From an uncultured Candidatus Saccharibacteria bacterium (lineage in GTDB: Bacteria; Patescibacteriota; Saccharimonadia; CAILAD01; GCA-016700035), in contig CAZYFT010000001.1 in the NCBI GenBank assembly GCA_964646575.1, positions 8,118-72,117 on the forward strand: a stretch of DNA of 64,000 bases. The letters are read 5' to 3'. Below are positions 30,560-63,434 of this stretch, in pieces. The notes beneath the pieces were generated by a model that was given only the letters and a program-made list of their open reading frames with translations, was not told where the DNA came from and did no database searches. Numbering within the stretch: the first letter of the stretch is position 1; each line of letters starts with the position of its first letter. Made by a program: the position numbers and the translations under genes.

Positions 30560-30962
30560 GGGGCTGACTATTAGCTTCGACAGGGTGATCATTGACAAGC
30601 ATAACTTGCAGGCCGGGTTGAGATGAACGTTATCCGTCTCAAACCAATAAGTGTAAACTCACTTGCAAGCAAGGTACGCAGTGCTTTTTCAGCACCCGCT
30701 CTTGCACCAGCTTTCGCCTAAACCCGAAAGCCATCCAGTAAGCTTACGCCAACTGTAGCTTCGTCGGGTGTTATACTTTTGTTGGCTGCCCATGATGTGT
30801 TCTGCGTCCGCAGCATGGTAAGTTACCAGATTGCAGGAAAGGCTCGGGGATTGGTTCGCTTGTTCTCCCGTCGTCTTTCTCAAAACACGTAAGCGAACTA
30901 AGCTTGTAGACAGTATGCGAGTCACACACTGGACGAGGGTGCGATTCCCTCCAGCTCCACCA
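30560..30962 (+). ncRNA. ssrA: tmRNA (SsrA), one-piece. Predicted tag ORF gca...gcc taa, encoding (ASKVRSAFS)APALAPAFA*.
   Basis: 5' GGGGCTGActattagcTTCGACAGGGtgAT matches the canonical tmRNA 5' end. 3' GGACGAGGGTGCGATTCCCTCCAGCTCCACCA is the tRNA-like T-arm plus acceptor. 5'/3' acceptor pairing ggggctg/cagctcc. Confidence 0.8.
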
Positions 30963-34489: not shown

Positions 34490-36244
34490 CTAATTTGTAA
34501 TTATGACAGTCTTTTCACGGGCCATACTTTGAATACCGGTATTGGTAATAATGAAGTTCTGCAGTATCCAGGTTCCAGTGGAGAGGCTGGCAGTCGAAAT
34601 ATCTTGCCGTAGGCTCCGCGTGCCACTTGGAGTGAGCCCACTAGCAATAGTGATTGATTGATTTGTAGATGTATTTATAGCTCGTGTTGTGCAGGTTACA
34701 TCAACAAGTATAGATGTACAGGTAGAGTTAAATTTATCAAACTCATAATCTGTGAGTTCTGTATCGAGTTCGCTAAGAGATATGCGTGAGGCAGAGAGTG
34801 GTGAACCTATAGACGTTGTAGCAGATACATCATTAAGTGCTCCATAGGTGTTGAGAAGGCCATGCCCGTAGAGATTCGTGAAGTTTATATTGTTCATGGG
34901 TGCAAGTTTAGTGGCAGTTCCCGTTAGAGCGACACTGACTTGAGTGGGTGTAAGCGTGGGGTTTTGCGAAAGCAGTAGCGCTGCAGCGCCAGCAACAAGA
35001 GGGCTAGAGAATGATGTTCCGTTCAAGCCACAGGCGTTAAGGCCGGATTGTGCGGCGTTAGTCCATACTGTTGAGCACAACCCAGCGCCAGGAGCAACTA
35101 GATCTAAATTATTTCCATAATTGGAGAAACTGGCAATTGAATTGTCGGCATTCGTGGCCCCAACTGCAATTACATCTGGATACCGAGCGGGGTAGGAAAT
35201 ACAGTTACAGCCATCGTTCCCAGATGCAGCCACCACGACTACTCCATTTTGTGTTGCGTAATCTATTTGTTCGGACACCAAAGGGTCGTCAGCTTCTGCG
35301 CCTAAGCTCATATTGATGATACTCGCACCTTGGTCTACTGCATAACGTATACCGAGTGCTACAGATATTGTGTAGCCATCTCCATAATCATCAAGAGCTT
35401 GAATGGGCAGGATTTTAGCACCCCAGCTCATACCAGCGCCGCTAGCGTTGTTGTTGGCTTGTGCGGCAATTAGGCTTGATACAGTCGTGGCATGGTATGC
35501 ACCACTGGCGGTAGGGGCGGTTTGGCCGGCACTTACATTGTTGGTGTCGTCGCTAAAATTCCAGCCAAGGTAATTATCTATATAGCCATCGTTATCATCG
35601 TCGAGATTATTACAGCGTTTATCAACAGATAGGGAACGACTGGTACAGTTGGGGGCTGGGCCTTCGGTGGTGGTTGTACCAACTTCAGCAGCGTTTTCTG
35701 CCCACTTATTCGTTAAATCTGTTACTTGCAGGCCAAATCCGGTGTCTATCACTGCTATCGTTACGTCAGAATTGCCAGATTGATGGTTCCAAGCTGGAAG
35801 GGTATTGGTGTTTGTGAGGTGCCATTGGTTTGAAGCGAGGGGGTCAGTTGGAGTGAGAAAAGCAGAATAGCGCTGGTTAATAAAAGTTTTTACCCCTGAA
35901 GTCGCAATAATATTTTGGGCACGCACACCATACACACCCAAGGCTTCAATATATTTTAAATCAGATAGCTCAAGATTGTTTGCAGTGAGGAATTCTTCCT
36001 GCGCTAATTCATCTTGAAAGCGGAGGATGTATTGTGTGTTCTTAGACTCTATGTGGGCCGAATTTCCATCAAGAGATTGGGTGTTTTCTAGGCTTACAGG
36101 TTGTAAGCTTTCTTTAGCAGGGGCATTGGGTGGATTCGGCAGAGGGTCCCCCGGAGCATGAACTGGAGTAGCGAACAGTATAAGGAGTAATCCAGCGCTA
36201 ATCCCTGCCGTTGAGAGTTTTGCGTTTCGCAGGTGTAATTTCAT
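34490..36244 (-). CDS. Secreted subtilisin-like serine protease (peptidase S8) with a signal peptide and a C-terminal extension.
   Basis: Catalytic triad motifs VIDTGF (Asp), HATTVSSLIAA (His) and GTSFSSPLVAGAAALL (Ser). N-terminal signal peptide LLLILFATPVHA. Confidence 0.85.
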   Translation of the reverse strand: MKLHLRNAKLSTAGISAGLLLILFATPVHAPGDPLPNPPNAPAKESLQPVSLENTQSLDGNSAHIESKNTQYILRFQDELAQEEFLTANNLELSDLKYIEALGVYGVRAQNIIATSGVKTFINQRYSAFLTPTDPLASNQWHLTNTNTLPAWNHQSGNSDVTIAVIDTGFGLQVTDLTNKWAENAAEVGTTTTEGPAPNCTSRSLSVDKRCNNLDDDNDGYIDNYLGWNFSDDTNNVSAGQTAPTASGAYHATTVSSLIAAQANNNASGAGMSWGAKILPIQALDDYGDGYTISVALGIRYAVDQGASIINMSLGAEADDPLVSEQIDYATQNGVVVVAASGNDGCNCISYPARYPDVIAVGATNADNSIASFSNYGNNLDLVAPGAGLCSTVWTNAAQSGLNACGLNGTSFSSPLVAGAAALLLSQNPTLTPTQVSVALTGTATKLAPMNNINFTNLYGHGLLNTYGALNDVSATTSIGSPLSASRISLSELDTELTDYEFDKFNSTCTSILVDVTCTTRAINTSTNQSITIASGLTPSGTRSLRQDISTASLSTGTWILQNFIITNTGIQSMAREKTVIITN

Positions 36245-36262
36245 GCCTGCAATGTCGTTAAG

Positions 36263-36300
36263 GTGATCATTACGACCCCACAGACGTAATGATCACCAGC
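36263..36300. promoter_or_regulatory. Perfect 13-bp inverted repeat (GGTGATCATTACG-N10-CGTAATGATCACC) immediately upstream of the S8 protease start. Candidate operator.
   Basis: Read from the sequence. No T-run follows it, so an operator is more likely than a terminator. Confidence 0.3.
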
Positions 36301-36585
36301 TACTTTATATTGCTGTATGAATGAATGATTTTGTACTGAAGACTGGAAGCAAATAGGTCTTACCAGTATTTTTTTATTGTTAAGTTTAGTGTTTTTGTGT
36401 AGCATTTGATGTTTACGTTTAAGCTTGTTGTATGTATTGCTCTCTACTTTATATACATATGACTGCAGAGACAATAGTTTTTATGCTTAAATGAGTTTTT
36501 TTGACGCAAAAAAGTATTCATTTTGTTCTTCTTGGTATGATATAGTGATTGTGAGTTACATAAGCGTTTCATACGCAAAAAAGTC

Positions 36586-39500
36586 ATGAAAGAATCCAAA
36601 AAGCAAATCCCGCAGAAATCTATTCGTTCAGTCGATGCAGTTCGTCAAGCGGCTGTTTCTGTGCGTAAAGACTCACAGTCGTATGCTCCTATCCAGCACA
36701 TGACGAGGCTCGGTGCAGTTTTTATTGCTGTAAGGTGCTTAGTGCGGCGTGCACCCGAAAAGCTTGAGATATTTAAGGACAGAATAAGGCTAAGCAGCCA
36801 GCGCATAGCTAGCAAGTTGGTTTCTAAGCTTCCAAAGGTATCTGTTCCCCGAATACAAACGTCTAACAGGTTAAAAAGTGTTGTAGCCAGTACATCATTA
36901 GCGCTTATGATGGTTCTGATGTTCTTCAATTTGGGAATTGGTAACATTGCACGAGCGTTCGAGGATCTTAACCAGTCTGATTGGTCTGGTGGGGTTGGCG
37001 CCAGTCCAGTTGATCAGTACAGTGCCGGCGAAAATGTTGTAACCACTACACCAAATAGAATAGAGCTTGGCGTCGATCAACAGAACCAGTGGTGTAATAC
37101 TGCGTTATGTGATAACCAGTGGCAGTATCGGAAATCAGTATGGTTACCACAATATTCAGTTGATCTTACTGGACGCAGCTCAGTTCAACTTGAGTTTGAT
37201 TTGGAATACACGGCAGCAATGAAGTCTGACTTTAGTGATGTCCGCTTTGTAAGCGCCAATGACAGTCAAGATATACCATATGTAATCACAAGCAAGACTA
37301 ATGGTGGGAGCGCTCACTTTATTGTTAAGGTGCCGGTAGTAAATGGCGATTCACCCGAGATGCTACGAGTGTATTACGGAAATGCTAATGCCAGCTCAGT
37401 TGAAAATAAGGCAGGTACTCTCGATATATGGGATGAGTTTGATCAAGGGCGGAGCTGCCCTGCCGGCAATCCAATAGGCTGTACTCCCAATACAGCCGTT
37501 GTAAATATGGGTGAATTGGAAATCAATTCCTCCGATTATTATCCGGCGAGTAATTATGTTCTCTCGAAGGGAATTGATAGGATTTTTCAAATCGATATAA
37601 AGCCACGGGATGCATTTGGCTGTGATTACAACAACTATGTGTCTTACATGTCACTAGGGAAAAATAATTGGTGGCAAGATCCTTCTGGTACTGTCAGTAT
37701 GTATACTTACGGGCGTGGTGGTGGTCAGGGGTGTTCTACTGCGAAAAGCCAACATCAACTCGCAATTATCCAGTCCAGCTGGTTCAGGGATAGTCAAAAT
37801 TATGGTGGTGGGGGATGGTTAGATAATGACCAAATACTTAGGCATACTACTGAAGACACCGAGTGGTTGACTATCCGCACAGTGATGAAGGCTGCTGGAG
37901 GGTATGACGTTTATACGAGCACCAATGGGGGTGCTAGTTTTCGTTTAGTTGGCCAAAATATAAGCTCAAAAGAAACTTTCTTGACCGACTTTGATAGATG
38001 GTATATCTCAACGCAGAGCTCGATGCCGCTGAGTGTGAAAAATATTCGCAGCTATAGCTACGTACCGAACGCACAGCCTGTATCTGTAGGTGTGCAAGAA
38101 AAGTTAGGGGGCTATACAGGTTACTTAGATTCAGTAGAATACGATCTTGGTCAGAATGGCGTATATGTTGGTCAAATTACAGCAGAGACGGTCGGTTCGG
38201 GAAAAATTAGTTTTCGTGTTGTTGGGTCTTCTGTGGAGGGTGGGACAAGTCAGTTTGGTGACGCGCGCCATTGTAAGATTATAGAGAACGGTGGGGATGC
38301 AGGGGCGAGTAACTGCATGGAGGCTAATTCGAGGTACGTAAAATATTTAGCAATCATTCAGGATGATGATGGGAATAAGGATTTTGCCGTAACAAATATT
38401 CGTCTTCAATATGGTTTTGATGATCAATCGCCGAATGCAGCGGGAGGGATAAATGTACGTAGAGAGGGTGCAAGTGGACCGCTTGTTACCACTGGCTGGA
38501 TTAATACTTCACCGTACTTTGGCTGGAGTGCAGCTAGCGATAATCAGGGTGGCAGTGGTGTGGTTGGGTATTGTCTCTATTTTGGGAGCGATGAATCTGC
38601 AGATCTAGCAACCACGCAGGGCATACTTCCTGTTTTGAGCCCTCTGGAAACCAATGACCGTTGTCAGTATGCGGTCTCCGGTACCTCACTCAACATGTCG
38701 CAGCTTGATCTGCAGGCGCAATTAAGTAGTGACACAGTCTACTACCTAAAGATACGAAGTATTGATAAAGTTGGGAATTTGTCTAATGAGTCCGTGTTAA
38801 CAATTGGCTATGATACCGAAGAGCCTGAGTTTAATACCTTGGCAACAGGACCAAATGGCGCTGTGAATTCACCGCTTGCTAATATTAACTGGCTAACGAC
38901 ACCGCCGGCAGGTGCGGATGATAGTGGGGGATCTGGTATCGCGGGTGTTAGATATTGTGTTAATTATTTTGGTAGTGTACTTCCGGAGTGTAACTTAGAA
39001 ACTGGAGGTGGCGAAGATACCCCGGACTGGATATGGTTTGGGGCTTCGGGCAATCCGGGCGGACTATATGATTTATCGGATACCATTCCATTTACAGATG
39101 GAGGATTTCAGATATCCACGAACGCACTTTCTCATTTGACGAATGAAGGCATAAATTATGCCTATGTCGTATTGCTTGATAGAGCTGGTAATGTTGGCGG
39201 TGGTGGCGTGGGTTATATTAATACCACCCAACAGACTGCTTCACCACCCCGAAATCTAGTAGTATCTCCGCCTATTAGCAGTCAGAACCAGTTCTCTTTT
39301 AGCTGGGAGGCGCCTTCCAGCCTGACCGGTCCAGCTAGTGAGGTAGATTACTGCTGGACTGTAAACGCTCCAATATTGCAGGACGCTAGCAATTGTAATT
39401 GGACTGGCAAGGGAATTACCCAGCTGGCGAATGGTGCTTATGCGACGCAGCAGGGGGAGAATACGATGTATGTTATGGCGAAAGATCAATCGCAGAACTT

Positions 39501-41085
39501 CTCGAATATGAATGTGGCAACGGTAAAATTTACAGCATTTACGACAGCACCAGGTGCTCCGCAAAATCTTGAGCTGTCTGATGTGTCTACTCGGGCGACT
39601 GCGAGCTGGAAAATTGCCCTAAGCTGGAGCGCGCCACAGCTGCCGGGTTCCGGTGTGACAGGCTATAAGATTTATAGGTCTACCAATAATGTAGATTTTA
39701 CTGAAGTCGGCACCACGTCAAATACCAATCTTAGCTTTATAGATTCTGGTCTCTCGCAAACTGACTACTATTATTATGTAAAAGCCTGCGATAGCGCTAA
39801 TAGCTGTGGTGTAGCCAGTAATACTGAGATAGAGTATCCGAGTGGTCGATATACCACACCAGCTCGACTAACCGATGACACCGATCAGCCGAAAATCCGA
39901 GATATCGGTACGCGTAAAGCTACAGTTTATTGGTTTACTGACCGAGCAAGTGATTCTAAGATAGCTTATGGTACCGCGCCTGGACAGTATTTCCCTGAAG
40001 AGGTCGGTAATTCGGCACAAATTTCTACACATGTTGTAAATCTTACAAATCTTGAGCCTGGTAAAACATATTATTATGTAGCTCGGTGGACAGATGAAGA
40101 TGGCAATATGGGGGTTTCCACAGAGAGATCTTTCACAACGCTACCAGCGCCAACCGTAAAGGAAGTTTCGGCATCAAATCTGACCATAGGTTCTGCTGTA
40201 GTTAATTTTACAACTGATAATGCACATAAGGCTAATGTATATTTTGGAGCCAATGATGCCTTTGGTGGCGTGAAGAGTGTTAATACTTCAACATCATCTT
40301 CTAGCTATAGTTTAAGTTTGGATAATCTGCGGGATGGGCAGAAATACTACTTTAAGATCAGTACGGTCGATGCCGATGGCTATGAATATCAGGGAGATAT
40401 TTATAGCTTTACCACACCAGCTCGTCCACGGATTATAAATTTGCGCTTTGATACGGTCGAAGGTGAGCCAAGTAGCACCCAGAAGATTGTTTGGACGACC
40501 AATGTTCCGACTACTAGTGAGGTGGTGTATGGTCTGAGGGATGGTAAGCAGATCGAAGCCGTAGACTCGGTGCTTGTGGTGGAGCATGAGATGGTGGTTC
40601 GTGGACTTGAAGACGATGCGGATTATCAGCTAGTTGCCCGCTCGCGCGATGCTGCTGGCAATCTGGCAATATCTGATCGGCAATCTTTCCAGACTGCCGA
40701 GGACACGCGTGCTCCAAAGATTAGTAACTTGAAGATTGAGACAGATATTCGTGGATCCGGAGGCGAAGCTCGAGGCCAGGTGATTGTGTCTTGGCGCACC
40801 GATGAGCCGGCGACCAGCCAAGTAGCCTTTGCTAAGGGTCGCACCGATGAGCTAAGTAATCGATCACAACAAGATACACGTCTAACGACTGAGCATGTGG
40901 TGGTGGTGTCAGATCTGACGACCTCGAGTATTTATCAGGTTCAGGCGGTCTCATCTGATAAGGCTGGTAATGAGTCATCTTCGGATGCTCAAACTGCAAT
41001 CATTGGTCGTGGTACAGACAGTATTTTTAGCGTTATCTTTAATGCCCTGCAAGCAATCTTCGGCTTTGGGGATTCTAGTATATGA
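36586..41085 (+). CDS. Giant (~1499 aa) cell-surface protein. It has an N-terminal signal/anchor, a DUF2341-like (concanavalin/LamG-like) domain, and at least 5 tandem FN3 / purple-acid-phosphatase-N-like beta-sandwich repeats. The annotated start may lie downstream.
   Basis: FSDVRFVSANDSQDIPYVI...MLRVYYGNANA is the DUF2341 signature. Repeated modules end in YYYVKA / YYYVARWTD / YYFKISTVD / YQLVARSRD / YQVQAVSSD (FN3-like). Confidence 0.75.
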   Translation: MKESKKQIPQKSIRSVDAVRQAAVSVRKDSQSYAPIQHMTRLGAVFIAVRCLVRRAPEKLEIFKDRIRLSSQRIASKLVSKLPKVSVPRIQTSNRLKSVVASTSLALMMVLMFFNLGIGNIARAFEDLNQSDWSGGVGASPVDQYSAGENVVTTTPNRIELGVDQQNQWCNTALCDNQWQYRKSVWLPQYSVDLTGRSSVQLEFDLEYTAAMKSDFSDVRFVSANDSQDIPYVITSKTNGGSAHFIVKVPVVNGDSPEMLRVYYGNANASSVENKAGTLDIWDEFDQGRSCPAGNPIGCTPNTAVVNMGELEINSSDYYPASNYVLSKGIDRIFQIDIKPRDAFGCDYNNYVSYMSLGKNNWWQDPSGTVSMYTYGRGGGQGCSTAKSQHQLAIIQSSWFRDSQNYGGGGWLDNDQILRHTTEDTEWLTIRTVMKAAGGYDVYTSTNGGASFRLVGQNISSKETFLTDFDRWYISTQSSMPLSVKNIRSYSYVPNAQPVSVGVQEKLGGYTGYLDSVEYDLGQNGVYVGQITAETVGSGKISFRVVGSSVEGGTSQFGDARHCKIIENGGDAGASNCMEANSRYVKYLAIIQDDDGNKDFAVTNIRLQYGFDDQSPNAAGGINVRREGASGPLVTTGWINTSPYFGWSAASDNQGGSGVVGYCLYFGSDESADLATTQGILPVLSPLETNDRCQYAVSGTSLNMSQLDLQAQLSSDTVYYLKIRSIDKVGNLSNESVLTIGYDTEEPEFNTLATGPNGAVNSPLANINWLTTPPAGADDSGGSGIAGVRYCVNYFGSVLPECNLETGGGEDTPDWIWFGASGNPGGLYDLSDTIPFTDGGFQISTNALSHLTNEGINYAYVVLLDRAGNVGGGGVGYINTTQQTASPPRNLVVSPPISSQNQFSFSWEAPSSLTGPASEVDYCWTVNAPILQDASNCNWTGKGITQLANGAYATQQGENTMYVMAKDQSQNFSNMNVATVKFTAFTTAPGAPQNLELSDVSTRATASWKIALSWSAPQLPGSGVTGYKIYRSTNNVDFTEVGTTSNTNLSFIDSGLSQTDYYYYVKACDSANSCGVASNTEIEYPSGRYTTPARLTDDTDQPKIRDIGTRKATVYWFTDRASDSKIAYGTAPGQYFPEEVGNSAQISTHVVNLTNLEPGKTYYYVARWTDEDGNMGVSTERSFTTLPAPTVKEVSASNLTIGSAVVNFTTDNAHKANVYFGANDAFGGVKSVNTSTSSSSYSLSLDNLRDGQKYYFKISTVDADGYEYQGDIYSFTTPARPRIINLRFDTVEGEPSSTQKIVWTTNVPTTSEVVYGLRDGKQIEAVDSVLVVEHEMVVRGLEDDADYQLVARSRDAAGNLAISDRQSFQTAEDTRAPKISNLKIETDIRGSGGEARGQVIVSWRTDEPATSQVAFAKGRTDELSNRSQQDTRLTTEHVVVVSDLTTSSIYQVQAVSSDKAGNESSSDAQTAIIGRGTDSIFSVIFNALQAIFGFGDSSI

Positions 41086-41888
41086 GTCAGGCACTAGTAG
41101 AGTTTCAAAAGGTGTCGCGTGATTTTAGGGCGGTTGATGGCACGATAAGTGTTTTAAAAGATATAAACTTTAAGGTGGAGACTGGTAGCTTTACGATTAT
41201 CTATGGACCTTCTGGTAGTGGCAAGACGACGATTTTAAATATGATCTTGGGGCTTTTACCGCCAACCAAAGGGGATGTTGTGGTAAGCGGAGAGAAGTTA
41301 TATGGTTTGACACAAGATGGTCGTGCAAAATTCAGGGCAGCCCATTATGGTATTGTGAGTCAGGTTAATAACTGGATATTGAGTATGAATGTGCAGGAAA
41401 ATGTAGCTTTGCCGTTGTATCTTTCTGGTACTCCGCGTCATGAAGCGCTTAAGAAGGCTGCTGCCAGCATTGAGCGCGTCGGGCTTGCGAAGTATATGCG
41501 CTATAATCCGGCGGTGTTGTCGGTTGGTCAACAGCAACGTATTTCGATGGCGCGGGCGACAGTTAAAACGCCACGGCTTTTAATTGCTGATGAGCCTACT
41601 GGTAACCTCGATACGACAAATGGCGACATGATAATGCAGCTCATGACTAGCTTTAGAAATCATGAGAATACAACCGTAATACTGGTGACTCATAATTTGA
41701 GTTATCTTTCATTGAGTAGTCATCGACTCTTCTTGAAAGACGGCGTTTTATCAGTGGATGAGGGTGGCTTCCAGCTAGAAGAAGAGCGTCGACGTATGTT
41801 GATGACAAGCTTTTTGGAGGCTAATAAAACGGACACTGCTCAACAGGGCAAGGCGGCGTCTGTGAAGAAAGGCGGCAAGCGTGGCTGA
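41082..41888 (+). CDS. ABC transporter ATP-binding protein (MacB/LolD/FtsE type).
   Basis: Walker A GPSGSGKTT, signature LSVGQQQRISMARA, Walker B LLIADEPTGNLD. 4-nt overlap with the upstream giant protein gene. Confidence 0.85.
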   Translation: MSQALVEFQKVSRDFRAVDGTISVLKDINFKVETGSFTIIYGPSGSGKTTILNMILGLLPPTKGDVVVSGEKLYGLTQDGRAKFRAAHYGIVSQVNNWILSMNVQENVALPLYLSGTPRHEALKKAAASIERVGLAKYMRYNPAVLSVGQQQRISMARATVKTPRLLIADEPTGNLDTTNGDMIMQLMTSFRNHENTTVILVTHNLSYLSLSSHRLFLKDGVLSVDEGGFQLEEERRRMLMTSFLEANKTDTAQQGKAASVKKGGKRG

Positions 41889-43164
41889 GCGTAACCATAA
41901 AACCAATGAGAAAGCGAATGAATTGAAGGTTATGCCTAGGCTAAAAAAGCACCGATTTAAGAGAGAAGGCGTGGTGGCAACATCCATTCTGGTGCGTATG
42001 GCGGCCCAGAATCTTTTCTTTAAGAGGCTACGAACTACGCTGACCATTCTTGGCGTGGTGATTGGTATTGGTGCGGTGATATTTTTGCTCTCGTTTGGGT
42101 ATGGTTTGCAGAATTTAGTTAGCCGTCAAGTGATTGGGGCAAAATCGGTTAAGAGTATTGATGTCAATAAGCCACGCTCGACAGCCATTAAATTTGATGG
42201 TGAAAATATTACTCGGCTCAAAAATATTGGTTCGGTGGAATCGGTGGCTCGCGTTTTTACCGAAGCTGCTAAAGTAAAATCGGGTAGCTCACAGATTGAT
42301 TCGGTGCTGTTTGGCGTTGATTCAGAATATCTAAACCTAGCCTCCGTACGCGTGGTGACTGGCAAAAGTTTATTGGCGGGCGGCTCGACGGATGAGACCC
42401 TAATCAATACTTCACTTGCAAGAGCAGTGGGCTTACCACAAGGCGATGAGGTACTCGGCAAGGTGATTAATATGAGTTTTGATGTTGTGCAGGCTGATGG
42501 GGTCAAGAAAACTGTTCAGAAGGACATGAGAATTATCGGCCTTGTTGAAGGGAGTGGGGGTGCTGAAGTTTTTGTGCGTAGTCAGCTATTTATTGATAAT
42601 GGTGCCCAAGATGCCGGTCAAGTAAAGATACTGGCAACTGATCGGGCGGCTGTACCGCAGATTCGTAAGGAGATTGAAAGTATTGGCTTCGCTACCGCGT
42701 CACCACTTGATACTCTAGACCAGATTTCTCAGGTGTTCGGTTTGCTACAGATGGTCTTTATTGGTTTTGGAGGGATTGGTATGGTGATTGCGATACTCGG
42801 GATGTTTAACACGCTGACTATTTCTTTATTGGAGAGGACTCGGGAAATTGGGCTCCTGATTGAGTTTGGTGCGCGACGACGAGATATTAAACGGCTATTT
42901 ATCATTGAGTCTTTAATGTTATCAATATTGGGTGGCCTAATTGGGTTAATTAGTGCCTTCATGCTCGGTAAGATCGCTGATGTGGCAATTAGTAGCTTTG
43001 CGCGTAGTCGAGGAGTGCAGGAGTCGGTGTCAGCTTTTATGGTGACACCTCAGTTAGCAATTATGACGTTGGTATTGAGCGCATTGTTTGGGCTGGCAGT
43101 TGTTTATTTTCCGGCGCGTCGGGCATCACGAATTGATCCGATTGACGCATTGCGTTACGAATAA
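41881..43164 (+). CDS. ABC transporter permease, MacB/FtsX family. It has a large extracytoplasmic domain between TM1 and TM2.
   Basis: FtsX-type C-terminal 3 TM bundle (EIGLLIEFGARRRDIKRLFIIES...). An N-terminal TM is followed by a ~220-aa loop. Overlaps the ATPase gene by 8 nt. Confidence 0.8.
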   Translation: MAERNHKTNEKANELKVMPRLKKHRFKREGVVATSILVRMAAQNLFFKRLRTTLTILGVVIGIGAVIFLLSFGYGLQNLVSRQVIGAKSVKSIDVNKPRSTAIKFDGENITRLKNIGSVESVARVFTEAAKVKSGSSQIDSVLFGVDSEYLNLASVRVVTGKSLLAGGSTDETLINTSLARAVGLPQGDEVLGKVINMSFDVVQADGVKKTVQKDMRIIGLVEGSGGAEVFVRSQLFIDNGAQDAGQVKILATDRAAVPQIRKEIESIGFATASPLDTLDQISQVFGLLQMVFIGFGGIGMVIAILGMFNTLTISLLERTREIGLLIEFGARRRDIKRLFIIESLMLSILGGLIGLISAFMLGKIADVAISSFARSRGVQESVSAFMVTPQLAIMTLVLSALFGLAVVYFPARRASRIDPIDALRYE

Positions 43165-43475
43165 TTTTTTTGAGACTAGTCGCACAATTAATTTGGGTAC
43201 GACTTTTTTATTTTGAGCCAAGAACTTTGACTGAGCTCTAGTATTAATTATTTTTGTAGCTTTGATTAATGACGTGTTGGTATGCAGTTTGTAAAATATA
43301 TTCTGCGCGTGAATAAGTTAAGAAGAGAATAAAAAGTATGCAATAAAGAAACCAGGTTAGGGTGGTTGTGGGGACCGTCCTAACCTGGAGAAGTGTCTTG
43401 TGTGTTTGTTTTTGAGTAATATATGTGTGCAGCAGCACTACACCGATAATACGGCTTATACATAACCTTTGTCAA

Positions 43476-43506
43476 CAAAAAAGTTGTGGATAACCACAAC
43501 TTTTTT
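43476..43506. terminator. Bidirectional intrinsic terminator downstream of fba (minus strand), also usable from the plus strand.
   Basis: aaaaaaGTTGTGGataaCCACAACtttttt. Confidence 0.6.
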
Positions 43507-43527
43507 GTGTGAATGGGTATTTACAGG

Positions 43528-44692: not shown

Positions 44693-45148
44693 TTATGTAT
44701 TTAATCGACGCTTTGCTTCAAGAGCAGCATCGATTTTCATAGTCTTTTTGCGCGATGCCTCCCGTTTGTCATAATGTTTTTTGCCGCGCCCAAGAGCGAT
44801 TTCTACTTTAATAAGACCGTGCTCCACACCAACAGCAACAGGCACCACCGCCAGTCCAGCCCCGCGTTTTTCGGCTTCGAGGTTGTCAATTTGCTTACGA
44901 TGCAAAAGAAGCTTGCGCGATCGGGTGGGGTCATGCTCTTTCAGATTGGCGGCGTGGCTATACCGTCGTATATGGGCATTCACCAGATAGGCTTCATGAT
45001 TCTGGAAGTGCACAAAGCTGCCCTTGAGGCTAATTTGTCCGGCTCGCACGCTTTTTACTTCATGTCCCAACAGGGAGATTCCAGCCGTGATGCGCTCGAT
45101 AATTTCGTAGTCATGGAAAGCACGACGATTTTTGGCAATAACTTTCAT
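44693..45148 (-). CDS. smpB: SsrA-binding protein.
   Basis: IAKNRRAFHDYEIIERITAGISLLGHEVKSVRAGQISLKGSFV. Confidence 0.9.
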   Translation of the reverse strand: MKVIAKNRRAFHDYEIIERITAGISLLGHEVKSVRAGQISLKGSFVHFQNHEAYLVNAHIRRYSHAANLKEHDPTRSRKLLLHRKQIDNLEAEKRGAGLAVVPVAVGVEHGLIKVEIALGRGKKHYDKREASRKKTMKIDAALEAKRRLNT

Positions 45149-53563: not shown

Positions 53564-54561
53564 ATGACACTCAAACAGAACTGCGTCAGGTTCAATCTGA
53601 CTTTACTGCTCGTTTAGCTGAGGTGAAGACCCAGCCAGATTTGCTTACTTTAAAATCGGACTTTCTCGGTAAAAAGGGGAGGCTGCAGGCCATTTTGAAG
53701 TCTCTGAGCGCGCTTTCAGTAGATGAGCGGCGGGATATTGGCGCTCGGGCCAATGCATTAAAGAAGGAAATAGAGGGGCAGCTAGCGCGGCAAGAGTTTG
53801 TTATTGCAGAGAGCGCTGACGCGTCACTCTCTTCAGTTGATCTATCTTTACCTATACGTAGCGAGCAGCGGGTGGGGCATGGACACCCTACACAGCTTGT
53901 TTTAGACGATATTTATGAAGTGTTCTTGCGCTTGGGCTTCGCGGTTGTTGATGGGCCTGAGGTAGAGACTGATTGGTATAACTTTGAGGTCCTTAATATG
54001 CCGGCAGATCACCCAGCCCGGGATATGCAGGATACGTTTTATTTGGAGGCTGAAGAAGGCGCGGTGCCTTTGGTGCCGAGAACACACACCTCGGCTTCGC
54101 AAATTCGCTATCTGGAGACTCATAAGCCACCGTTTAAGATTATCGTGCCCGGGAAAGTCTATCGCAATGAAGATGAGGATAGAACTCACTCCTGGACATT
54201 TTATCAGGTGGAGGGCTTGGTGGTTGGCGAGGGTGTGAGCATGGCGGATCTAAAGGGCACATTGTTACACTGCGTACAATCTTTGCTTGGTTCAGATGTG
54301 AAGATTCGCTTTAGGCCAAGCTTTTTCCCATATACCGAGCCGTCTGTTGAGGTTGACGTGTGGTATCAAAATGAGTGGCTTGAGGTTGGCGGTGCTGGTA
54401 TGGTGCACCCACATGTTTTGGCGCGTGGTGGAGTGGATCCGGAGCACTTTTATGGGTTTGCTTTTGGGTTTGGTCCAGATCGGTTGGCGCTTATTCGCTA
54501 TGGCTTAACGGATTTGCGCAAGCTATGGCGCCCCAATCTTCTGATGAGTGAGGATTTATGA
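53560..54561 (+). CDS. pheS: Phenylalanyl-tRNA synthetase alpha subunit.
   Basis: Class II motifs FRPSFFPYTEPSVEVDV and GAGMVHPHVL. Confidence 0.9.
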   Translation: MNDTQTELRQVQSDFTARLAEVKTQPDLLTLKSDFLGKKGRLQAILKSLSALSVDERRDIGARANALKKEIEGQLARQEFVIAESADASLSSVDLSLPIRSEQRVGHGHPTQLVLDDIYEVFLRLGFAVVDGPEVETDWYNFEVLNMPADHPARDMQDTFYLEAEEGAVPLVPRTHTSASQIRYLETHKPPFKIIVPGKVYRNEDEDRTHSWTFYQVEGLVVGEGVSMADLKGTLLHCVQSLLGSDVKIRFRPSFFPYTEPSVEVDVWYQNEWLEVGGAGMVHPHVLARGGVDPEHFYGFAFGFGPDRLALIRYGLTDLRKLWRPNLLMSEDL

Positions 54562-57383
54562 AAATAGCAATTGCTACACTTAATCGATACTTGAAAAAGC
54601 CACGATCAACCGACGAAATCGTGGAGCTTATGGCGCGCACAGAAATTGAGGTAGAGGAAATTATTCGCTCGGATAGTTTGGATGCAAAGATTATTTTAGT
54701 GAAGACTGTTGAAGTTGAACCGCATCCCAATGCCGATCGACTTCGCCTTGTGACGGTAACAAATGGCACAGATAAGATTAGGGTTGTGTGCGGAGCGCCA
54801 AATGTTACGGTTGGTCAGCGCGTTGGTTTGGTGCAGCCGGGTGCAAAATTGCCAGACGGAACAAAGATTGGTGTATCGAAGATCCGCGGCGAGGTTTCGC
54901 ATGGCATGCTCGCAAGTGCTCAGGAGCTTGGCTTGAGCGATGATCATTCTGGCATCTTTGTTTTTGAAGAAGACTCACATAGGCTCGGTACATCATTGTG
55001 CGACATTGTGTTTTTCGGGGATGTGCTAGACATAAAGACACCTGCAAATAGATGGGATTACCTAAGTGGGGTAGGGCTAGCGCGCGAATTGGCCGCCCAT
55101 GATGAAGGGCAGGGGGTAGTGGAGCCCGCAGTTGGCGAGTATTCATATAAAAACACCGACTACGTAAATGTCAAGGCGAGGGAAGAGAATAGACGGTTTG
55201 TTTCGGCGAAACTCAGAGTTAAGAATGATGTAAAAAGTCCTGCATGGCTTGTGGATAACTTGGCGGCGAATGGAATCGCCACTCATAATCCAGTTGTTGA
55301 TATTACAAACTTTGTGATGCTTGAACTTGGTCAGCCGAGTCACGCCTATGATGCTACAGCATTGACTGGCCCACTCGAGGTTCGCTATGCCGAGAAAGGT
55401 GAAAAAATTACCACACTCGATGATGAGACGCGTGAATTAACCGAGCAGGATCTTGTTGTATGCGATGCAACTGGTCCGGTTGGCTTGGCTGGCGTAATGG
55501 GCGGAGCTTCTAGCCAAATTGGGATAGAAACTACCGAAATTGTACTTGAGGCTGCACACTGGGATAAGTCGTGCATCCGCAAGACTGCTGTGCGACACGG
55601 TTTGCGCACGGAAGCTTCGTCTCGGTTTGAGCGCCCTATCCCACTCCCCTTGCCACAAAAAGCTTTTTCAAGACTCTTAGATTTGCTCACAGAAATTTGT
55701 GAAGCTGAAATTATTGAAGGACCGTATGATCAGCTGCATGGCTGGCCGTGGCAACAATTTTTGGGCGTTCGAGTTCGTCAAGCCGAACGGTTTTTGGGGA
55801 TTACTCTGGATGAGAAGCAGGTTGTTAAGGACCTAAAGAAGCTAGGATTTTCGGTTGAGCACTTCTCTATCACTAAAGAGCTGAGAAGCCATGTCGGAAA
55901 ACCATATCGTTGGGGTGCGAATTTTCGTCAAGATGGCGAGGAGGCCTTTGATTGCTCATATCTGGTGGATCGCATCTATTCTAAGCTTGGTATTTTTGTT
56001 GGTCATACGGCCTTGGGGCAAATTCATACAGGTCGACCAGTTGAAGCAAACGAGCTCAAGCCTGGAGATGTGTTGTTTTATGAGGGGAAAATTGAGAAAT
56101 CTGTAACTGATCATTATTATTTAATGAATCCTGATGGCACTAAGACCAGATACGATCTGGAGAAGCCAGAAAAAGTTGGACATAACGGCATTTATCTAGG
56201 CGGTGGCCAAGTGGTTCAGGCAGCGCAGTATAAATACCAGCAGGGCGAATGGGTGCGTCGCGATGAGGGCGGTGTGATCATCTCCCCCGTTGAGGAATTT
56301 ATCGAGAACCCCGGCTATCTGGGTGCGCGGCGTTATGTTGAAAGTTTCAATCATATTCTGGCGGTAGAAGTCCCCTGGTGGCGCAGTGACATTCGCTTAG
56401 AGGCGGATATGTTTGAGGAGATTGCCAAGTTGGTTGGATACGACAAGATGTCCGAGACATTGCCTGATATCGCGCCGATGCCGGATTCTAGCCAGTCGCC
56501 ACTAGTTGCAATGCGTGAATTGCGCCGGCGGTTGAGACATATTGGAGGCACCGATGTCGCAACATACAGCTTCATATCAGAGACCGACGCCAAAGCCTCT
56601 AAGTTAGCCATCGATAGTTTGCCTACGGTAGCTAATCCACGCTCCCCTGAACAGAAATATTTGCGGTCTGATCTACTGGCAAGTCATCTGACGATGTGGC
56701 AAAAGAATAGCGTATCTAAGACTGGTCAGGTGGCCTTTGAGCTTTCTAGGGTTTTTGATGGCTCGGGCAGAGACGGCAAGCTACCTAAAGAAAAATGGGT
56801 GTTGGCAATAAGTACTCATGGATCGGACTCTTTGAGTCAATTGCAGGCGTACGTACACCATTTCCTGGCTGGCCTACATGTACAGGCAAAGTTTCAAGTT
56901 GATGAGCGTGCTGATGACAGGTTGGTGCCTCAGCGATCGGCACAGCTGATGGTCGGTGGTGCTAAGCTTGGTGTAATTGGTCAAGTAAGTACTCCTATCT
57001 GGAAGCAGTTCGGCCTCACTCAACCTGCTAGTTATTCACTTCTTGATATTAAGGTGCTTTTGGAGGTCATCGCTACACCACGAGTAAAAACACTCCCAGA
57101 TTATCAGTTGGTACAGCGAGATATGAGCCTAGAAATGAGCGAGGTAACGAGCTGGCAGTCAATTACAGAAGTTGCACTTGAGCAGGCTGGACTCGTAAGC
57201 TGGGAATATCTATCCAGTTACCGCGATGCTGAACTTGAGCAGGCTGGACGAAAGGTAATCACGATAAAGGTAAGATTTGATCTTGGCCCGCGCCCAGAGG
57301 CAAGTGAGATTACGCGTATAGAAACAGACTTGGTGGCTGCATTGCAGTCTGTCTGTCCGTCGGCCGAGTTAGTGGTTCGGTAA
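54558..57383 (+). CDS. pheT: Phenylalanyl-tRNA synthetase beta subunit. Carries a ~160-aa NlpC/P60-type cysteine peptidase domain inserted within the B5 domain (residues ~441-598).
   Basis: PheT modules are all present: tRNA-binding domain (EPHPNADRLRLVTV), B3/4 (ATHNPVVDITNFVMLELGQPSHAYDA), B5 (VPWWRSDIRLEADMFEEIAKLVGYDKM), and FDX-ACB C-terminus. The protein is 941 aa versus ~800 aa typical. The insert carries DCSYLVDRIY...GDVLFYEG...GHNGIYLGGGQVVQA (NlpC/P60 Cys-His-His). Confidence 0.9.
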   Translation: MKIAIATLNRYLKKPRSTDEIVELMARTEIEVEEIIRSDSLDAKIILVKTVEVEPHPNADRLRLVTVTNGTDKIRVVCGAPNVTVGQRVGLVQPGAKLPDGTKIGVSKIRGEVSHGMLASAQELGLSDDHSGIFVFEEDSHRLGTSLCDIVFFGDVLDIKTPANRWDYLSGVGLARELAAHDEGQGVVEPAVGEYSYKNTDYVNVKAREENRRFVSAKLRVKNDVKSPAWLVDNLAANGIATHNPVVDITNFVMLELGQPSHAYDATALTGPLEVRYAEKGEKITTLDDETRELTEQDLVVCDATGPVGLAGVMGGASSQIGIETTEIVLEAAHWDKSCIRKTAVRHGLRTEASSRFERPIPLPLPQKAFSRLLDLLTEICEAEIIEGPYDQLHGWPWQQFLGVRVRQAERFLGITLDEKQVVKDLKKLGFSVEHFSITKELRSHVGKPYRWGANFRQDGEEAFDCSYLVDRIYSKLGIFVGHTALGQIHTGRPVEANELKPGDVLFYEGKIEKSVTDHYYLMNPDGTKTRYDLEKPEKVGHNGIYLGGGQVVQAAQYKYQQGEWVRRDEGGVIISPVEEFIENPGYLGARRYVESFNHILAVEVPWWRSDIRLEADMFEEIAKLVGYDKMSETLPDIAPMPDSSQSPLVAMRELRRRLRHIGGTDVATYSFISETDAKASKLAIDSLPTVANPRSPEQKYLRSDLLASHLTMWQKNSVSKTGQVAFELSRVFDGSGRDGKLPKEKWVLAISTHGSDSLSQLQAYVHHFLAGLHVQAKFQVDERADDRLVPQRSAQLMVGGAKLGVIGQVSTPIWKQFGLTQPASYSLLDIKVLLEVIATPRVKTLPDYQLVQRDMSLEMSEVTSWQSITEVALEQAGLVSWEYLSSYRDAELEQAGRKVITIKVRFDLGPRPEASEITRIETDLVAALQSVCPSAELVVR

Positions 57384-58999: not shown

Positions 59000-59329
59000 A
59001 TGAATGAAACTCAAAAATCTCAGGTTCAAACAGGTCGGGTGCAGGTAATCAGCAACCCTTTTCCTGAATCTACGTCGCACAATATTGAGTCGCCACCAGT
59101 TGCGGAGCATGATCAAGCTAAGGCACAGCCAGATGCGGCGAATGCGAATTCCTCCACTTCCCCATCGGCAGCCGCAGATAGCGACTTAATAGAGAAAACC
59201 TGGATAAGCGCTGTGGATAAAATTTCTCGTGATCATGGAGACGACCCGTTTACGTTGCAGCAAAAACAGGCTGAACTTACGCGTGATTATCTGAAAAAGC
59301 GGTTTGGTCGGGAGATAAAAGCATCGTGA
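59000..59329 (+). CDS. Small acidic, low-complexity protein. Translationally coupled (GTGA overlap) to the downstream ATPase.
   Basis: ORF with a disordered Ser/Ala/Pro-rich middle and a conserved-looking C-terminus. No motif. Confidence 0.3.
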   Translation: MNETQKSQVQTGRVQVISNPFPESTSHNIESPPVAEHDQAKAQPDAANANSSTSPSAAADSDLIEKTWISAVDKISRDHGDDPFTLQQKQAELTRDYLKKRFGREIKAS

Positions 59330-61880: not shown

Positions 61881-63434
61881 ATGCTGTTTCGCGACGTAGT
61901 CTCAAATATTTCGCTTGGTAGAGAAAGCAAAAATGTACTTGGCTTTTACATTAAACGAATTGCCGATGAGCAGTCGACGCGTGTCATCACGGCCGTATTG
62001 GCGCTCATCATGGTCGCTTTTCAGTCGGTGACATTTATTGCGCCACCAAAAATATCAGAAGCCAGTTCGGGTTCGTCAAACGATATACTCTACGGTGGGT
62101 ATAGTTCCAAAAATGATTTGTTGCGTAAGTTTGATTCTAACCCGGAGCTAAGGGCGATATACACCCGGGTTGGTATTGGACGTGATGAAATTGTTCGGGC
62201 GACCAACAGTCGTGTGAATTCATCGTGGGATGTGTGGTCGATGGGGCGAAGGCGTCATGGCGAGCAGAATGTCCAGCTCGATATTCCAGGTGCGCACACT
62301 GCTATTTATTTGCGGCCACTGAGGGTGTGGGGCAATAATAAATGGTTCTCTGGCCTGGAGGGCAAGACGGCTGCCGGGAAGCAGTTTTGGATACTCTATG
62401 ATTGTGGTAACCCAGTGTTTGCTGCTAACACTCCAGGCGAGAAGGTGCCAGCACCATCAACGCCACCTCCACCTCCTCCTCCGCCACCACCTCCACCAAC
62501 TACTCCCCCGCCACCGCCAGCCATAAGCTACGCCTGTCAGAGCTTGGCCGCCTACATAGACACGGCCAATAGCGGCAAGAATCCGCCACTCAAAGTAACC
62601 TTTGCTGGCGTTGCACAAATTGCCAATACTAAACTGAAGAACTACATTTTCGATTTTGGAGACGGAGAACGGATCTCAACTGATAAATCTCAAGTTGAAC
62701 ACACCTATAAAAAGTCAGGAACATATGTTGCTCGCTTGAGGATTGAAACTGCCGCAGGTACAACCAATAACTCAACCGCTTGCTCGCAAACAATTCGTGT
62801 TGTGGATGCCAAACTAACTTACAATAAGCAAGCAGTTAATCTGTCTATTAAGGACAAAAGCGGCAACCCAATACAGGCCAGCGGCACTACGGCTCAGGCT
62901 GGTAACGAAATTCGCTACAGTATCTCGGCGACCAATACAGGTACGGGTATTATTTCTGGGTTTGTATTCGAAGAAGCTATCGCCGATATCCTAGAATACG
63001 CTGACGTGCAGGATTTAGGTGGGGCTCAGCTAATTGAGAAGCCAATTCCGGGACAAGAAGACAAGCTAGTGGAGCGTACATTAGTGTGGGGTAAGGTAGA
63101 CATTAAAGGTGGTGAGACGGTTACCAAGCAGTTTGTAGTTCGGGTAAAAAACCCTATCCCTACCACGCCAACTGGCGTGAGTGATCCAAGCTCTTACGAC
63201 CTCAAAATAGAAAATATATTCTTTAACAACCGAGTCGAAATTCTGTTAGAGCAGCCACCTGTGAAGAGAGTCGAGGAAGTTGCTCAGACGCTGCCGCAAA
63301 CTGGTGTCGGATTGGCAACCACCAGCATGGCATTCTTTACGAGTGGTATGGTGTTCATCTTACTGCGTAATCGATTGATTAAGCGCGAGCTTGAAATTAT
63401 CGCTGTGACTGATCAAGGAGGCACCCATGGCTGA
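61881..63434 (+). CDS. Surface protein with an N-terminal signal anchor, a poly-Pro linker, a PKD domain, a DUF11-like repeat and a C-terminal LPXTG-type sorting signal.
   Basis: PKD motif FDFGDGE...HTYKKSGTYVARL. Linker PPPPPPPPPPPPTTPPPPP. C-terminal LPQTG is followed by a hydrophobic stretch and RNRLIKRE. Confidence 0.6.
   Translation: MLFRDVVSNISLGRESKNVLGFYIKRIADEQSTRVITAVLALIMVAFQSVTFIAPPKISEASSGSSNDILYGGYSSKNDLLRKFDSNPELRAIYTRVGIGRDEIVRATNSRVNSSWDVWSMGRRRHGEQNVQLDIPGAHTAIYLRPLRVWGNNKWFSGLEGKTAAGKQFWILYDCGNPVFAANTPGEKVPAPSTPPPPPPPPPPPPTTPPPPPAISYACQSLAAYIDTANSGKNPPLKVTFAGVAQIANTKLKNYIFDFGDGERISTDKSQVEHTYKKSGTYVARLRIETAAGTTNNSTACSQTIRVVDAKLTYNKQAVNLSIKDKSGNPIQASGTTAQAGNEIRYSISATNTGTGIISGFVFEEAIADILEYADVQDLGGAQLIEKPIPGQEDKLVERTLVWGKVDIKGGETVTKQFVVRVKNPIPTTPTGVSDPSSYDLKIENIFFNNRVEILLEQPPVKRVEEVAQTLPQTGVGLATTSMAFFTSGMVFILLRNRLIKRELEIIAVTDQGGTHG

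Follow-up and report, generated by a model that had tools for sequence, protein, structure and literature searches.

The stretch of DNA considered here, referred to as the window, comprises 64,000 nucleotides from an uncultured Candidatus Saccharibacteria bacterium (contig CAZYFT010000001.1 of assembly GCA_964646575.1, positions 8,118 to 72,117). The element of interest within it is a cassette in which the gene for a giant secreted protein overlaps the gene for an ATP-binding cassette (ABC) ATPase, which in turn overlaps the gene for a permease of the MacB/FtsX class. Comparison across relatives indicates that these three genes are one conserved unit of bacteria belonging to the candidate phyla radiation (CPR). 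The cassette is best classed, from its sequence, as a type VII ABC system that has an extracytoplasmic partner of its own, and the partner family and its C-terminal motif, which are newly defined here, are widespread in the CPR. The reading to which we give somewhat more credence than doubt is that the genes function as one unit in which the C-terminal module of the giant protein is coupled to the type VII ABC pair, which would serve as its tether or actuator.

Linkage of the giant gene and the ABC pair

The order of giant gene, ATPase gene and permease gene is maintained throughout the close homologues (L001, L003, L007 and L008 in our numbering of loci). Two distant homologues, P0011 (2029 aa with a LamG_3 head, 42% identity over 64%) and P0012 (39% identity over 61%), have the same trio in unrelated neighbourhoods, and in L004 the gene order is reversed, with the ABC pair upstream of the giant gene. 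A metagenome scan, checked by tblastn and open reading frame (ORF) analysis, yielded 80 loci, 74 of which include at least 900 nt downstream of the giant gene. The ATPase followed by the permease lies downstream on the strand of the giant gene in 70 of these 74, with a gap of at most 20 nt in 54 loci and at most 600 nt in 68; L064 is a 71st locus with the ABC pair, which is there in convergent orientation. Linkage persists where identity is 30-45% for the giant protein and 37-50% for the ATPase. A reciprocal test used three permease homologues (52, 49 and 44% identity) that were picked solely by permease similarity and contig extent and that lie in unrelated neighbourhoods. In each case the permease gene is preceded by an ATPase gene and a gene for a giant FN3/PAP_N protein (1394-1706 aa). 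A scan of a genome collection with the permease returned two loci. All-versus-all clustering of 816 flanking ORFs left only the giant protein (85 loci) and the ABC/permease proteins (78 loci) as conserved families; the next most frequent family occurs in 8 loci. No membrane-fusion (MacA/HlyD) protein or TolC is among the conserved neighbours in the approximately 85 loci. The initial annotation had proposed that the giant protein and the MacB-type ABC transporter form a functional unit and had named, as grounds for giving up the link, an ABC pair that stands beside unrelated genes in relatives; the unit was borne out by both the 74 loci and the reciprocal test, and the pair was found to keep its giant neighbour.

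The permease matches the Pfam models MacB_PCD (residues 52-267, 67.6 bits against a cut-off of 27) and FtsX (residues 296-420, 61.1 bits against a cut-off of 25.5). Hydropathy places its transmembrane (TM) helices at residues ~54-72, 299-317, 347-365 and 392-410, with an extracytoplasmic domain of ~220 aa between the first and second helices, which confirms the earlier assignment of a MacB/FtsX-type permease with a large extracytoplasmic loop. In some loci the permease is 550-850 aa long and has an expanded ectodomain. The ATPase (ABC_tran, 103 bits) has an intact Walker A motif (GPSGSGKT), signature motif (LSVGQQQR), Walker B motif (LLIADEPT) and H-loop (VTH), as well as a basic C-terminal extension of ~45 residues. 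With four TM helices, a large ectodomain and an intact cognate ATPase, the pair belongs to the type VII (MacB/FtsX/LolC-class) ABC superfamily, whose characterised members act by mechanotransmission on things outside the membrane and lack a transmembrane channel. The closest solved chains to the permease are Spr0695 (5xu1, E 2.6e-23) and YtrF (9o9x, E 6.6e-20), followed by MacB, LolF, LolE and LolC. Scores against NCBIfam are low for MacB (NF007826, 84-154 bits against a cut-off of 966), FtsE (TIGR02673, 182.6 against 264.85), FtsX (28-31 bits against 225-255), LolD (181.8 against 307.75) and lolCE (71 against 362.45), and the ABC pair, judged at the level of sequence, is not an orthologue of FtsEX, LolCDE or MacB.

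The junctions between the genes are tight. The giant and ATPase genes share an ATGA overlap in AGTATATGAGTC, and the permease gene starts with GTG and overlaps the end of the ATPase gene by 8 nt. An alternative permease ATG lies ~17 codons downstream and gives a protein of 410 aa, which is the NCBI annotation in CP064998.1, the closed 916-kb genome used as syntenic reference; permease residues 4-17, upstream of that ATG, are conserved in L008. The start/stop overlaps suggest that synthesis of the giant protein, ATPase and permease is coupled and roughly stoichiometric.

The retention of linkage at low identity, in unrelated neighbourhoods and in reversed order speaks against the possibility that the ABC pair is a generic efflux or resistance pump of the MacB, YtrEF or BceAB kind, which would handle an antimicrobial peptide, lipid or drug and share an operon with the giant gene without mechanistic coupling. 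The joint transfer of the stalk and the ABC pair (see below) and the lack of any other conserved neighbour argue in the same direction. Source databases do label relatives as 'ABC-type antimicrobial peptide transport system permease', and the nearest solved relatives, Spr0695 and YtrF, are of the efflux type; nonetheless, we hold this explanation to be highly improbable, and chance linkage to a generic efflux pump is very unlikely.

Several loci vary the arrangement. The ATPase and permease genes are fused in L056 (12669-15536) and in L090 (a 736-aa ABC-MacB protein). In one sub-clade (L019, L020, L027, L030, L038, L052 and L074) the gap between the giant and ATPase genes holds an extra ORF of 130-190 aa, for example at 12595-12990 in L038, whose product combines a TM helix at the N-terminus with one PAP_N/FN3-like domain and may serve as an adaptor subunit. 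In two Saccharibacteria loci a stand-alone response-regulator receiver gene encoding 121-124 aa overlaps the permease stop codon (L093, 10238-10612; L094, 10256-10621), which hints at phospho-regulation of the module in some lineages.

Architecture of the giant protein and its terminal helix

The layout of the giant protein recurs in nine full-length homologues (1471-1505 aa, 52-83% identity), and L092, which was assembled independently, matches the window at 99.98% identity over 24.5 kb. An assembly chimera, which the initial annotation had singled out for checking, was rejected based on the shared architecture of these nine proteins and on two assemblies, L092 reproducing the window and L002 the CP064998 arrangement, with the caveat that the L092 and L002 assemblies may derive from similar samples. 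The giant gene is, though, a natural mosaic (see below).

It is the C-terminal and not the N-terminal part of the giant protein that goes with the transporter, a point that the initial annotation missed. The signature of the family is formed by residues ~580-1494, which consist of FN3-like modules and then a helix ending IFSVIFNALQAIFGF; the 80 metagenomic loci, which came from an alignment-based scan, match mostly this region, and the N-terminal head is variable. The helix stands at the extreme C-terminus in almost all family members and occurs as three subtypes, IIGRxxxxxFxIIFNxLQxIFG[LF], TPKATxxALxLVIxNLSxxFGFL and LTPxxxxSxxQIIxxNFExxFGW. AlphaFold2 (AF2) places it at residues 1480-1492. 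It is amphipathic, with a hydrophobic moment of 0.39-0.45 compared with 0.08 for the N-terminal hydrophobic segment, and it is strongly constrained, with a nonsynonymous divergence (pN) of 0.074 and a dN/dS of ~0.06-0.08 (from the comparison with L007, as synonymous sites are saturated against L008 and L003). A C-terminal TM anchor was rejected, as hardly any member has a helix hydrophobic enough to pass the hydropathy threshold and the hydrophobic moment is high. No model in Pfam or NCBIfam covers the helix, and known C-terminal sorting domains were thereby rejected.

A phmmer search with the last 210 residues of the giant protein against 1.84 billion representatives gave 6818 matches at E≤1e-3; the stricter limit of E≤1e-30 leaves 1000, part of which match through the FN3 repeats only. 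Among the best 147 representatives, at least 62 have the helix ending according to a hidden Markov model (HMM), and more do by eye; the rest are FN3 proteins with other C-termini. The helix-bearing proteins are 900-6300 aa long, and the named members of the family are from Saccharibacteria, Parcubacteria and Uhrbacteria. The family can be described by one N-terminal signal segment, a C-terminal FN3/PAP_N stalk, a terminal helix of the form …FG[FLW], and an adjacent ABC ATPase with a MacB_PCD/FtsX permease; the window shows all four, and so do L093-L095 and the great majority of the 80 metagenomic loci. The subtype of the helix varies with the size of the permease, as the IIGR type accompanies a permease of ≤440 aa in 10 of 10 cases and the other types a permease of ≥550 aa in 33 of 33. 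The terminal helix is put forward as a candidate docking or recognition element for the ABC permease.

Pfam confirmed the domains assigned by the initial annotation across the locus (Peptidase_S8, DUF2341, fn3, Pur_ac_phosph_N, ABC_tran, MacB_PCD and FtsX). Within the giant protein these are DUF2341 at residues 215-288 (nt 37228-37449), fn3 at 991-1070 and Pur_ac_phosph_N at 1110-1185. DUF2341 (PF10102) scores above the Pfam gathering threshold and has a jelly-roll fold, and the beta-sandwiches of the head have the concanavalin-A-like lectin/glucanase fold according to an AF2 model and fold searches, which also gave weak similarity of the head model to SiiE and Aap. A GH16-like enzyme was rejected for the head; the sequence EFDLE at residues ~207-211 looks like the catalytic motif of GH16, yet homologues do not conserve it. 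The AF2 model of residues 781-1499 (m71bb2a29c3e7, predicted local distance difference test (pLDDT) score of 86.1) has about seven consecutive FN3-like sandwiches followed by the helix. Foldseek matched the stalk, with E values down to 1e-19, to FN3 arrays of titin/MyBP-C, gp130, fibronectin and the base of the Aureispira grappling-hook protein GhpA. A lectin-type head on FN3 repeats supports the earlier description of a secreted, adhesin-like surface protein. No LPXTG motif is present near the C-terminus, the lone LPxxG match being internal at residue 1019, so that the protein does not fall in the sortase-anchored class; hydropathy revealed no C-terminal TM segment, and Pfam at E≤0.01 no domain for binding the wall. 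The protein must therefore be anchored in some other way.

It is possible that the giant protein is instead an S-layer or main envelope lattice protein and that the ABC transporter assembles or remodels the lattice. CPR cells have been reported to carry S-layers, and the protein is large, secreted and rich in Ig/FN3 modules, with a conserved C-terminal element that resembles an attachment device. Lengths ranging from ~900 to 6300 aa, tandem paralogues and a hypervariable, recombining head are, however, traits of an adhesin or receptor-binding protein rather than of a lattice, and the module is apparently absent from some Saccharibacteria. We consequently regard a lattice protein as quite unlikely.

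The real start or signal peptide of the giant protein had been placed ~100 codons downstream of the first ATG. As regards the start this does not hold, because the tail ORF is kept from the same initiating Met in all nine close homologues and its frame is never lost; the first ATG is the likely start, the tail would be translated, and a downstream start was rejected. As regards the signal it does hold, since the signal or anchor segment lies ~100 residues in. The basic tail (residues 1-99) is weakly constrained, with 24-43% amino-acid identity and a dN/dS of 0.5-0.7 among close homologues; for the hydrophobic segment (residues 100-125) the values are 81-100% and 0.04-0.07. Every full-length family member has a single N-terminal hydrophobic segment, usually followed by a small-x-small motif, and several other members have long basic or His/aromatic-rich tails ahead of it. 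The giant protein is predicted to be exported by Sec via a signal peptide or signal anchor with an AxA-type site. The tail, which would be cytoplasmic, may be either the extended n-region of a signal peptide or the tail of a retained anchor, and the N-terminal segment probably belongs to an extended, cleavable signal peptide. Such an n-region is comparable in idea to the extended signal peptide region (ESPR) of large autotransporters. A type IV prepilin-like signal, an idea arising from the DUF2341/MJ1470 annotation (PMC11809585), was rejected as no G|FTLxE-type motif is visible.

Exchange tracts, the S8 protease and surrounding genes

Two tracts of the cassette have histories that differ from those of their surroundings (Table 1). 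Tract 1, whose counterpart is L001 12431-16780, has no mismatch to CP064998.1 over 38998-41392 and one mismatch over 41511-43347, with a divergent patch of 118 nt in between (41393-41510), and the flanking genes have just 66-79% nucleotide identity to CP064998.1. This points to a very recent exchange of the stalk and ABC module between distinct species. Tract 2 is 84-98% identical to L008, the flanks of which are at ~74%, and the N-terminal tail just upstream of the tract has 24% amino-acid identity to L008. The tracts meet at ~38860-38998. Given two tracts with separate histories, the giant gene is a natural mosaic of at least three pieces, with modules that were exchanged independently and a stalk that travels with the transporter. 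Because the head is exchanged separately from the stalk plus ABC pair, binding specificity might be altered quickly by this route.

Upstream of the giant gene, and divergent from it, lies a gene for a subtilase that had been annotated as an S8 protease with its own signal peptide. Both points were upheld: the signal peptide reads …ATPVHA|PGD, and the protein has a match to Pfam PF00082 (171 bits), the triad D167/H251/S411 in subtilase order, which places it in the subtilase class, and similarity to subtilisin/Savinase chains (E ~1e-36). Identity as a mycosin was rejected, with a TIGR03921 score of 175 against a cut-off of 278.75. The S8 gene is divergent from a giant gene solely in a close, largely syntenic sub-lineage (L001/L002, L007, L008 and L092) and in L010 (46-47% identity); it occurs in 4 clustered loci and is absent from ~80 other loci that keep the giant and ABC unit, among them L003 (56% identity), which has an NHL-repeat protein in its place. 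The proposal that S8, giant protein and ABC pair make up one surface module in which S8 processes the giant protein can draw on this retention within the sub-lineage and on the secretion of both proteins, but it fares poorly against the absence of S8 from ~80 loci. The S8 gene also lies outside both exchange tracts, and its ~70% nucleotide identity to CP064998.1 is that of the genomic background. The module as proposed is given little credence, and S8 is, from its distribution, a lineage-specific neighbour and no conserved component; processing of the head by S8 is at most conceivable within the sub-lineage that carries it.

Table 1. Positions of the cassette genes, their parts and the exchange tracts in the window
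Feature	Position	Strand	Details
S8 subtilase	34490-36244	-	584 aa; ORF listing
Divergent intergenic region	36245-36585		341 nt, AT-rich; presumed promoter region of the S8 and giant genes; sequence
Giant secreted protein	36586-41085	+	1499 aa; ORF listing
N-terminal basic tail	36586-36882	+	Residues 1-99; 23 K+R vs 6 D+E
Exchange tract 2	36862-38860		Signal segment and head; vs L008 4567-6565 (JAUPVH010000028.1)
Hydrophobic segment	36883-36957	+	Residues ~100-121, then ARA (122-124)/F125; hydropathy
Variable head	36958-38445	+	Residues ~125-620; QSDWSGG motif (130-136), DUF2341, further beta-sandwiches
Stalk	38446-41013	+	Residues ~620-1476; ~8-9 FN3/Ig-like beta-sandwich modules; AF2, Foldseek
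Exchange tract 1	38998-43347		~4.35 kb; FN3 stalk (from ~residue 805), ATPase, permease and ~180 nt of 3' flank; vs CP064998.1
Conserved C-terminal amphipathic helix	41014-41067	+	Residues 1477-1494, TDSIFSVIFNALQAIFGF; family signature
ABC ATPase	41082-41888	+	268 aa; ORF listing
MacB/FtsX-class permease	41881-43164	+	427 aa; ORF listing

The coordinates of the four ORFs, the ATGA overlap and the 8-nt overlap in the initial annotation were all reproduced by the ORF listing and the sequence. Its Gram-positive framing, on the other hand, is corrected here, as the source names of homologues place the host in the Saccharibacteria/Patescibacteria (CPR), and it is not a classical Gram-positive. A clear Shine-Dalgarno sequence was not seen upstream of the giant-gene ATG at 36586, and a promoter/terminator consensus scan gave no match above chance. 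No compositional anomaly was found. The surroundings are housekeeping genes, namely those for tmRNA, RNase P RNA, glycosyltransferases, a histidine phosphatase, a NUDIX protein, class I aldolase, SmpB, ArgRS and an AddA-like helicase. The tmRNA gene (30560-30962, +; tag peptide VNSLASKVRSAFSAPALAPAFA) and smpB (44693-45148, -) flank the cassette ~14 kb apart. The region 43165-43527, which is intergenic in the window, corresponds to the permease-aldolase gap in which L003 (10613-12859) and L007 (9446-11662) carry an extra gene for a secreted protein of 738-748 aa with NIDO, Ig_Rha78A_N, fn3, Big_1 and CarboxypepD_reg domains.

Further from the cassette, positions 42-2854 (+) encode a CHASE4-domain protein (309 aa) and, overlapping it, a histidine kinase (628 aa); the genome, which is otherwise reduced, thus retains a sensory pair. 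The beta subunit of phenylalanyl-tRNA synthetase (PheT; 54558-57383, +; 941 aa) is an unusual fusion in which the B3_4 and B5 domains are separated by an NlpC/P60 peptidase domain (residues 447-519, E 4e-12). At the edge of the window, a HerA/TrwB-like ATPase gene (59326-61818, +; 830 aa; DUF87, TrwB_AAD_bind) is followed by a gene for a PKD-domain protein (61881-63434, +; 517 aa), and the two may belong to a locus for DNA translocation or one that resembles conjugation or type IV secretion systems.

Coupling of the giant protein to the transporter

In the model that we favour, the giant protein would be exported by Sec via its single N-terminal hydrophobic segment and would form a long fibre outside the cell, with the variable lectin head N-terminal on a conserved FN3-like stalk that ends in the helix. 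The permease ectodomain or its outer-leaflet cavity would engage the terminal helix from the outer face of the membrane. Since a type VII transporter offers no channel through the membrane, the ATPase cycle would be transmitted by mechanical means, as happens in FtsEX-EnvC/PcsB or LolCDE, and ATP hydrolysis would in this way act on the fibre. The outcome would be a fibre that is held on the cell and changed in state, with loading or anchoring, actuation and release all possible. Coupling as a tether or actuator is favoured by the lack of any other visible anchor, by the translational coupling of the genes and by the co-variation of helix and permease.

Several points weigh against such coupling. 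That the helix, or the final FN3 modules, touches the permease is something that we infer, and AF2 gives the terminal helix only moderate confidence (pLDDT ~50-67). Shared ancestry may be all that lies behind the match of helix subtype to permease size. Should the N-terminal segment stay uncleaved, the protein is already anchored in the membrane, and the role of the helix would differ. Three or four loci have no adjacent ABC pair (L053, L075, L084), and annotation tables of the cultivated S. epibionticum have MacB pairs without such a giant neighbour, so the module is not universal in Saccharibacteria. Tandem giant paralogues also occur with one ABC pair, four in L090 (207-16788) and two in L094 (1-10263), and a multi-cargo transporter fits this sharing better than a fixed 1:1 complex does.

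Tandem paralogues served by one transporter are equally a point in favour of cargo release, in which the ABC pair would extract and expel a membrane-associated giant protein, through the wall or S-layer or into the medium, and would be a device for secretion or maturation and not an anchor. After export by Sec, the protein would be held transiently in the outer leaflet by its C-terminal helix or by an uncleaved N-terminal segment. Several of the helix subtypes have Lys/Arg-rich tails (…FGFLKKVSF, …FGWLKKIKS) typical of in-plane membrane association, whereas the helix in the window ends in acidic residues (…FGFGDSSI). There is precedent for type VII systems that expel Sec-exported or lipid-anchored cargo, namely LolCDE, MacAB-TolC with enterotoxin STII, and Aat with dispersin; the cassette, however, has no conserved membrane-fusion or outer partner. 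The linkage of the giant gene to the ABC pair is the same evidence for release as for coupling, but the overlapping genes suggest a complex-like stoichiometry. Furthermore, a freed fibre would have no visible hold on the cell, given the lack of LPXTG, a C-terminal TM segment or a Pfam wall-binding domain at E≤0.01. Release of this kind is considered rather unlikely, although it deserves some weight. A bolder idea is that the module is a new kind of surface machine powered by ATP, in which the type VII ABC pair is permanently coupled via the C-terminal helix to a giant lectin-tipped fibre, which ATP hydrolysis would move, tension or free so that the ultra-small CPR epibionts could grasp or release their hosts, with heads swapped by recombination changing host specificity. 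Such a motorised adhesin is doubtful.

Known systems share individual features with the cassette. FtsEX (with EnvC, PcsB, CwlO or RipC) is likewise type VII and channel-less, and its ectodomain docks onto a helical part of a secreted protein devoted to it, to which it transmits ATP-driven movement. The cassette permease differs in having a MacB_PCD (Porter/Sabre-type) ectodomain, and the FtsE and FtsX models fall far below their cut-offs, which keeps the pair out of that class; in addition, the FtsEX partner is a regulator of peptidoglycan hydrolases, whereas the cassette partner is a giant lectin/FN3 fibre encoded in the same operon. In LolCDE and MacAB-TolC/Aat, too, the permease has the MacB fold and handles cargo exported by Sec from the outer face of the membrane, and their sequence relationship to the cassette is detectable. 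The cassette differs in its host, which we take to be a monoderm of the CPR and hence to lack an outer membrane, in the absence of a MacA/HlyD adaptor or TolC from the ~85 loci, and in scores below the equivalog cut-offs, so that it is neither a MacAB-TolC tripartite pump nor a LolCDE system; its cargo would be 1000-6300 aa long and recognised by a C-terminal helix, not by acyl chains. The best permease matches, Spr0694-0695 of S. pneumoniae and YtrEF of B. subtilis, are MacB-type pumps of monoderms with a separate ATPase. However, Spr0694-0695 has Spr0693 as its membrane-fusion protein, YtrEF is encoded in an operon for cell-wall stress, and neither is tied to a giant surface protein.

The giant adhesins of type 1 secretion (LapA, SiiE, MpIBP) are similar in that a giant, repetitive adhesin-like protein with an uncleaved, functional C-terminal element is encoded beside an ABC transporter. 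Those systems use a HlyB-type exporter, a membrane-fusion protein and TolC, whereas the cassette has a type VII permease (FtsX/MacB) with four TM helices and no channel, an N-terminal Sec signal on the giant protein and no RTX repeats, and it does not belong to that class. Lactococcin-972-type operons combine a Sec-secreted protein with an FtsX-type permease and an ABC ATPase, and Rv0986-0988 of M. tuberculosis and AttE-H of Agrobacterium are 'adhesion component' ABC systems. Like the cassette, these are small operons that pair a Sec-exported protein with a MacB/FtsX-class ABC transporter, but their partners are small and unrelated and lack the FN3 stalk and helix motif, and their functions are poorly defined. 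The match of the cassette to TIGR03608 in NCBIfam is sub-threshold.

The Pam pili of CPR bacteria consist of small pilins joined by donor-strand exchange, with membrane-anchored chaperones and no ABC transporter (bioRxiv 10.64898/2026.03.03.709456). They too are CPR-specific extracellular filaments of Ig-like fold that are exported by Sec and implicated in host contact, but the giant protein differs in being a single-chain fibre. The Patescibacterium danicum paper describes DUF2341 and FhaB domains in CPR proteins of >4000 aa with no link to a transporter, and SEML1_0890 of S. epibionticum is an essential FN3 protein of 195 aa in a context unrelated to the cassette. A full-text literature search found no description of the cassette, although absence from the texts searched is no proof of novelty.

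The 20-residue C-terminal helix is a specific element and is likely the coupling point between the giant protein and the ABC pair. The CPR, or Patescibacteria, account for much of the diversity of bacteria, and their cells live on other microbes to which they attach. If the coupling is physical, the repertoire of type VII systems, which includes FtsEX, LolCDE and MacB, would extend to the anchoring, actuation or release of giant adhesins, and the cassette would provide a handle on host recognition in CPR bacteria.

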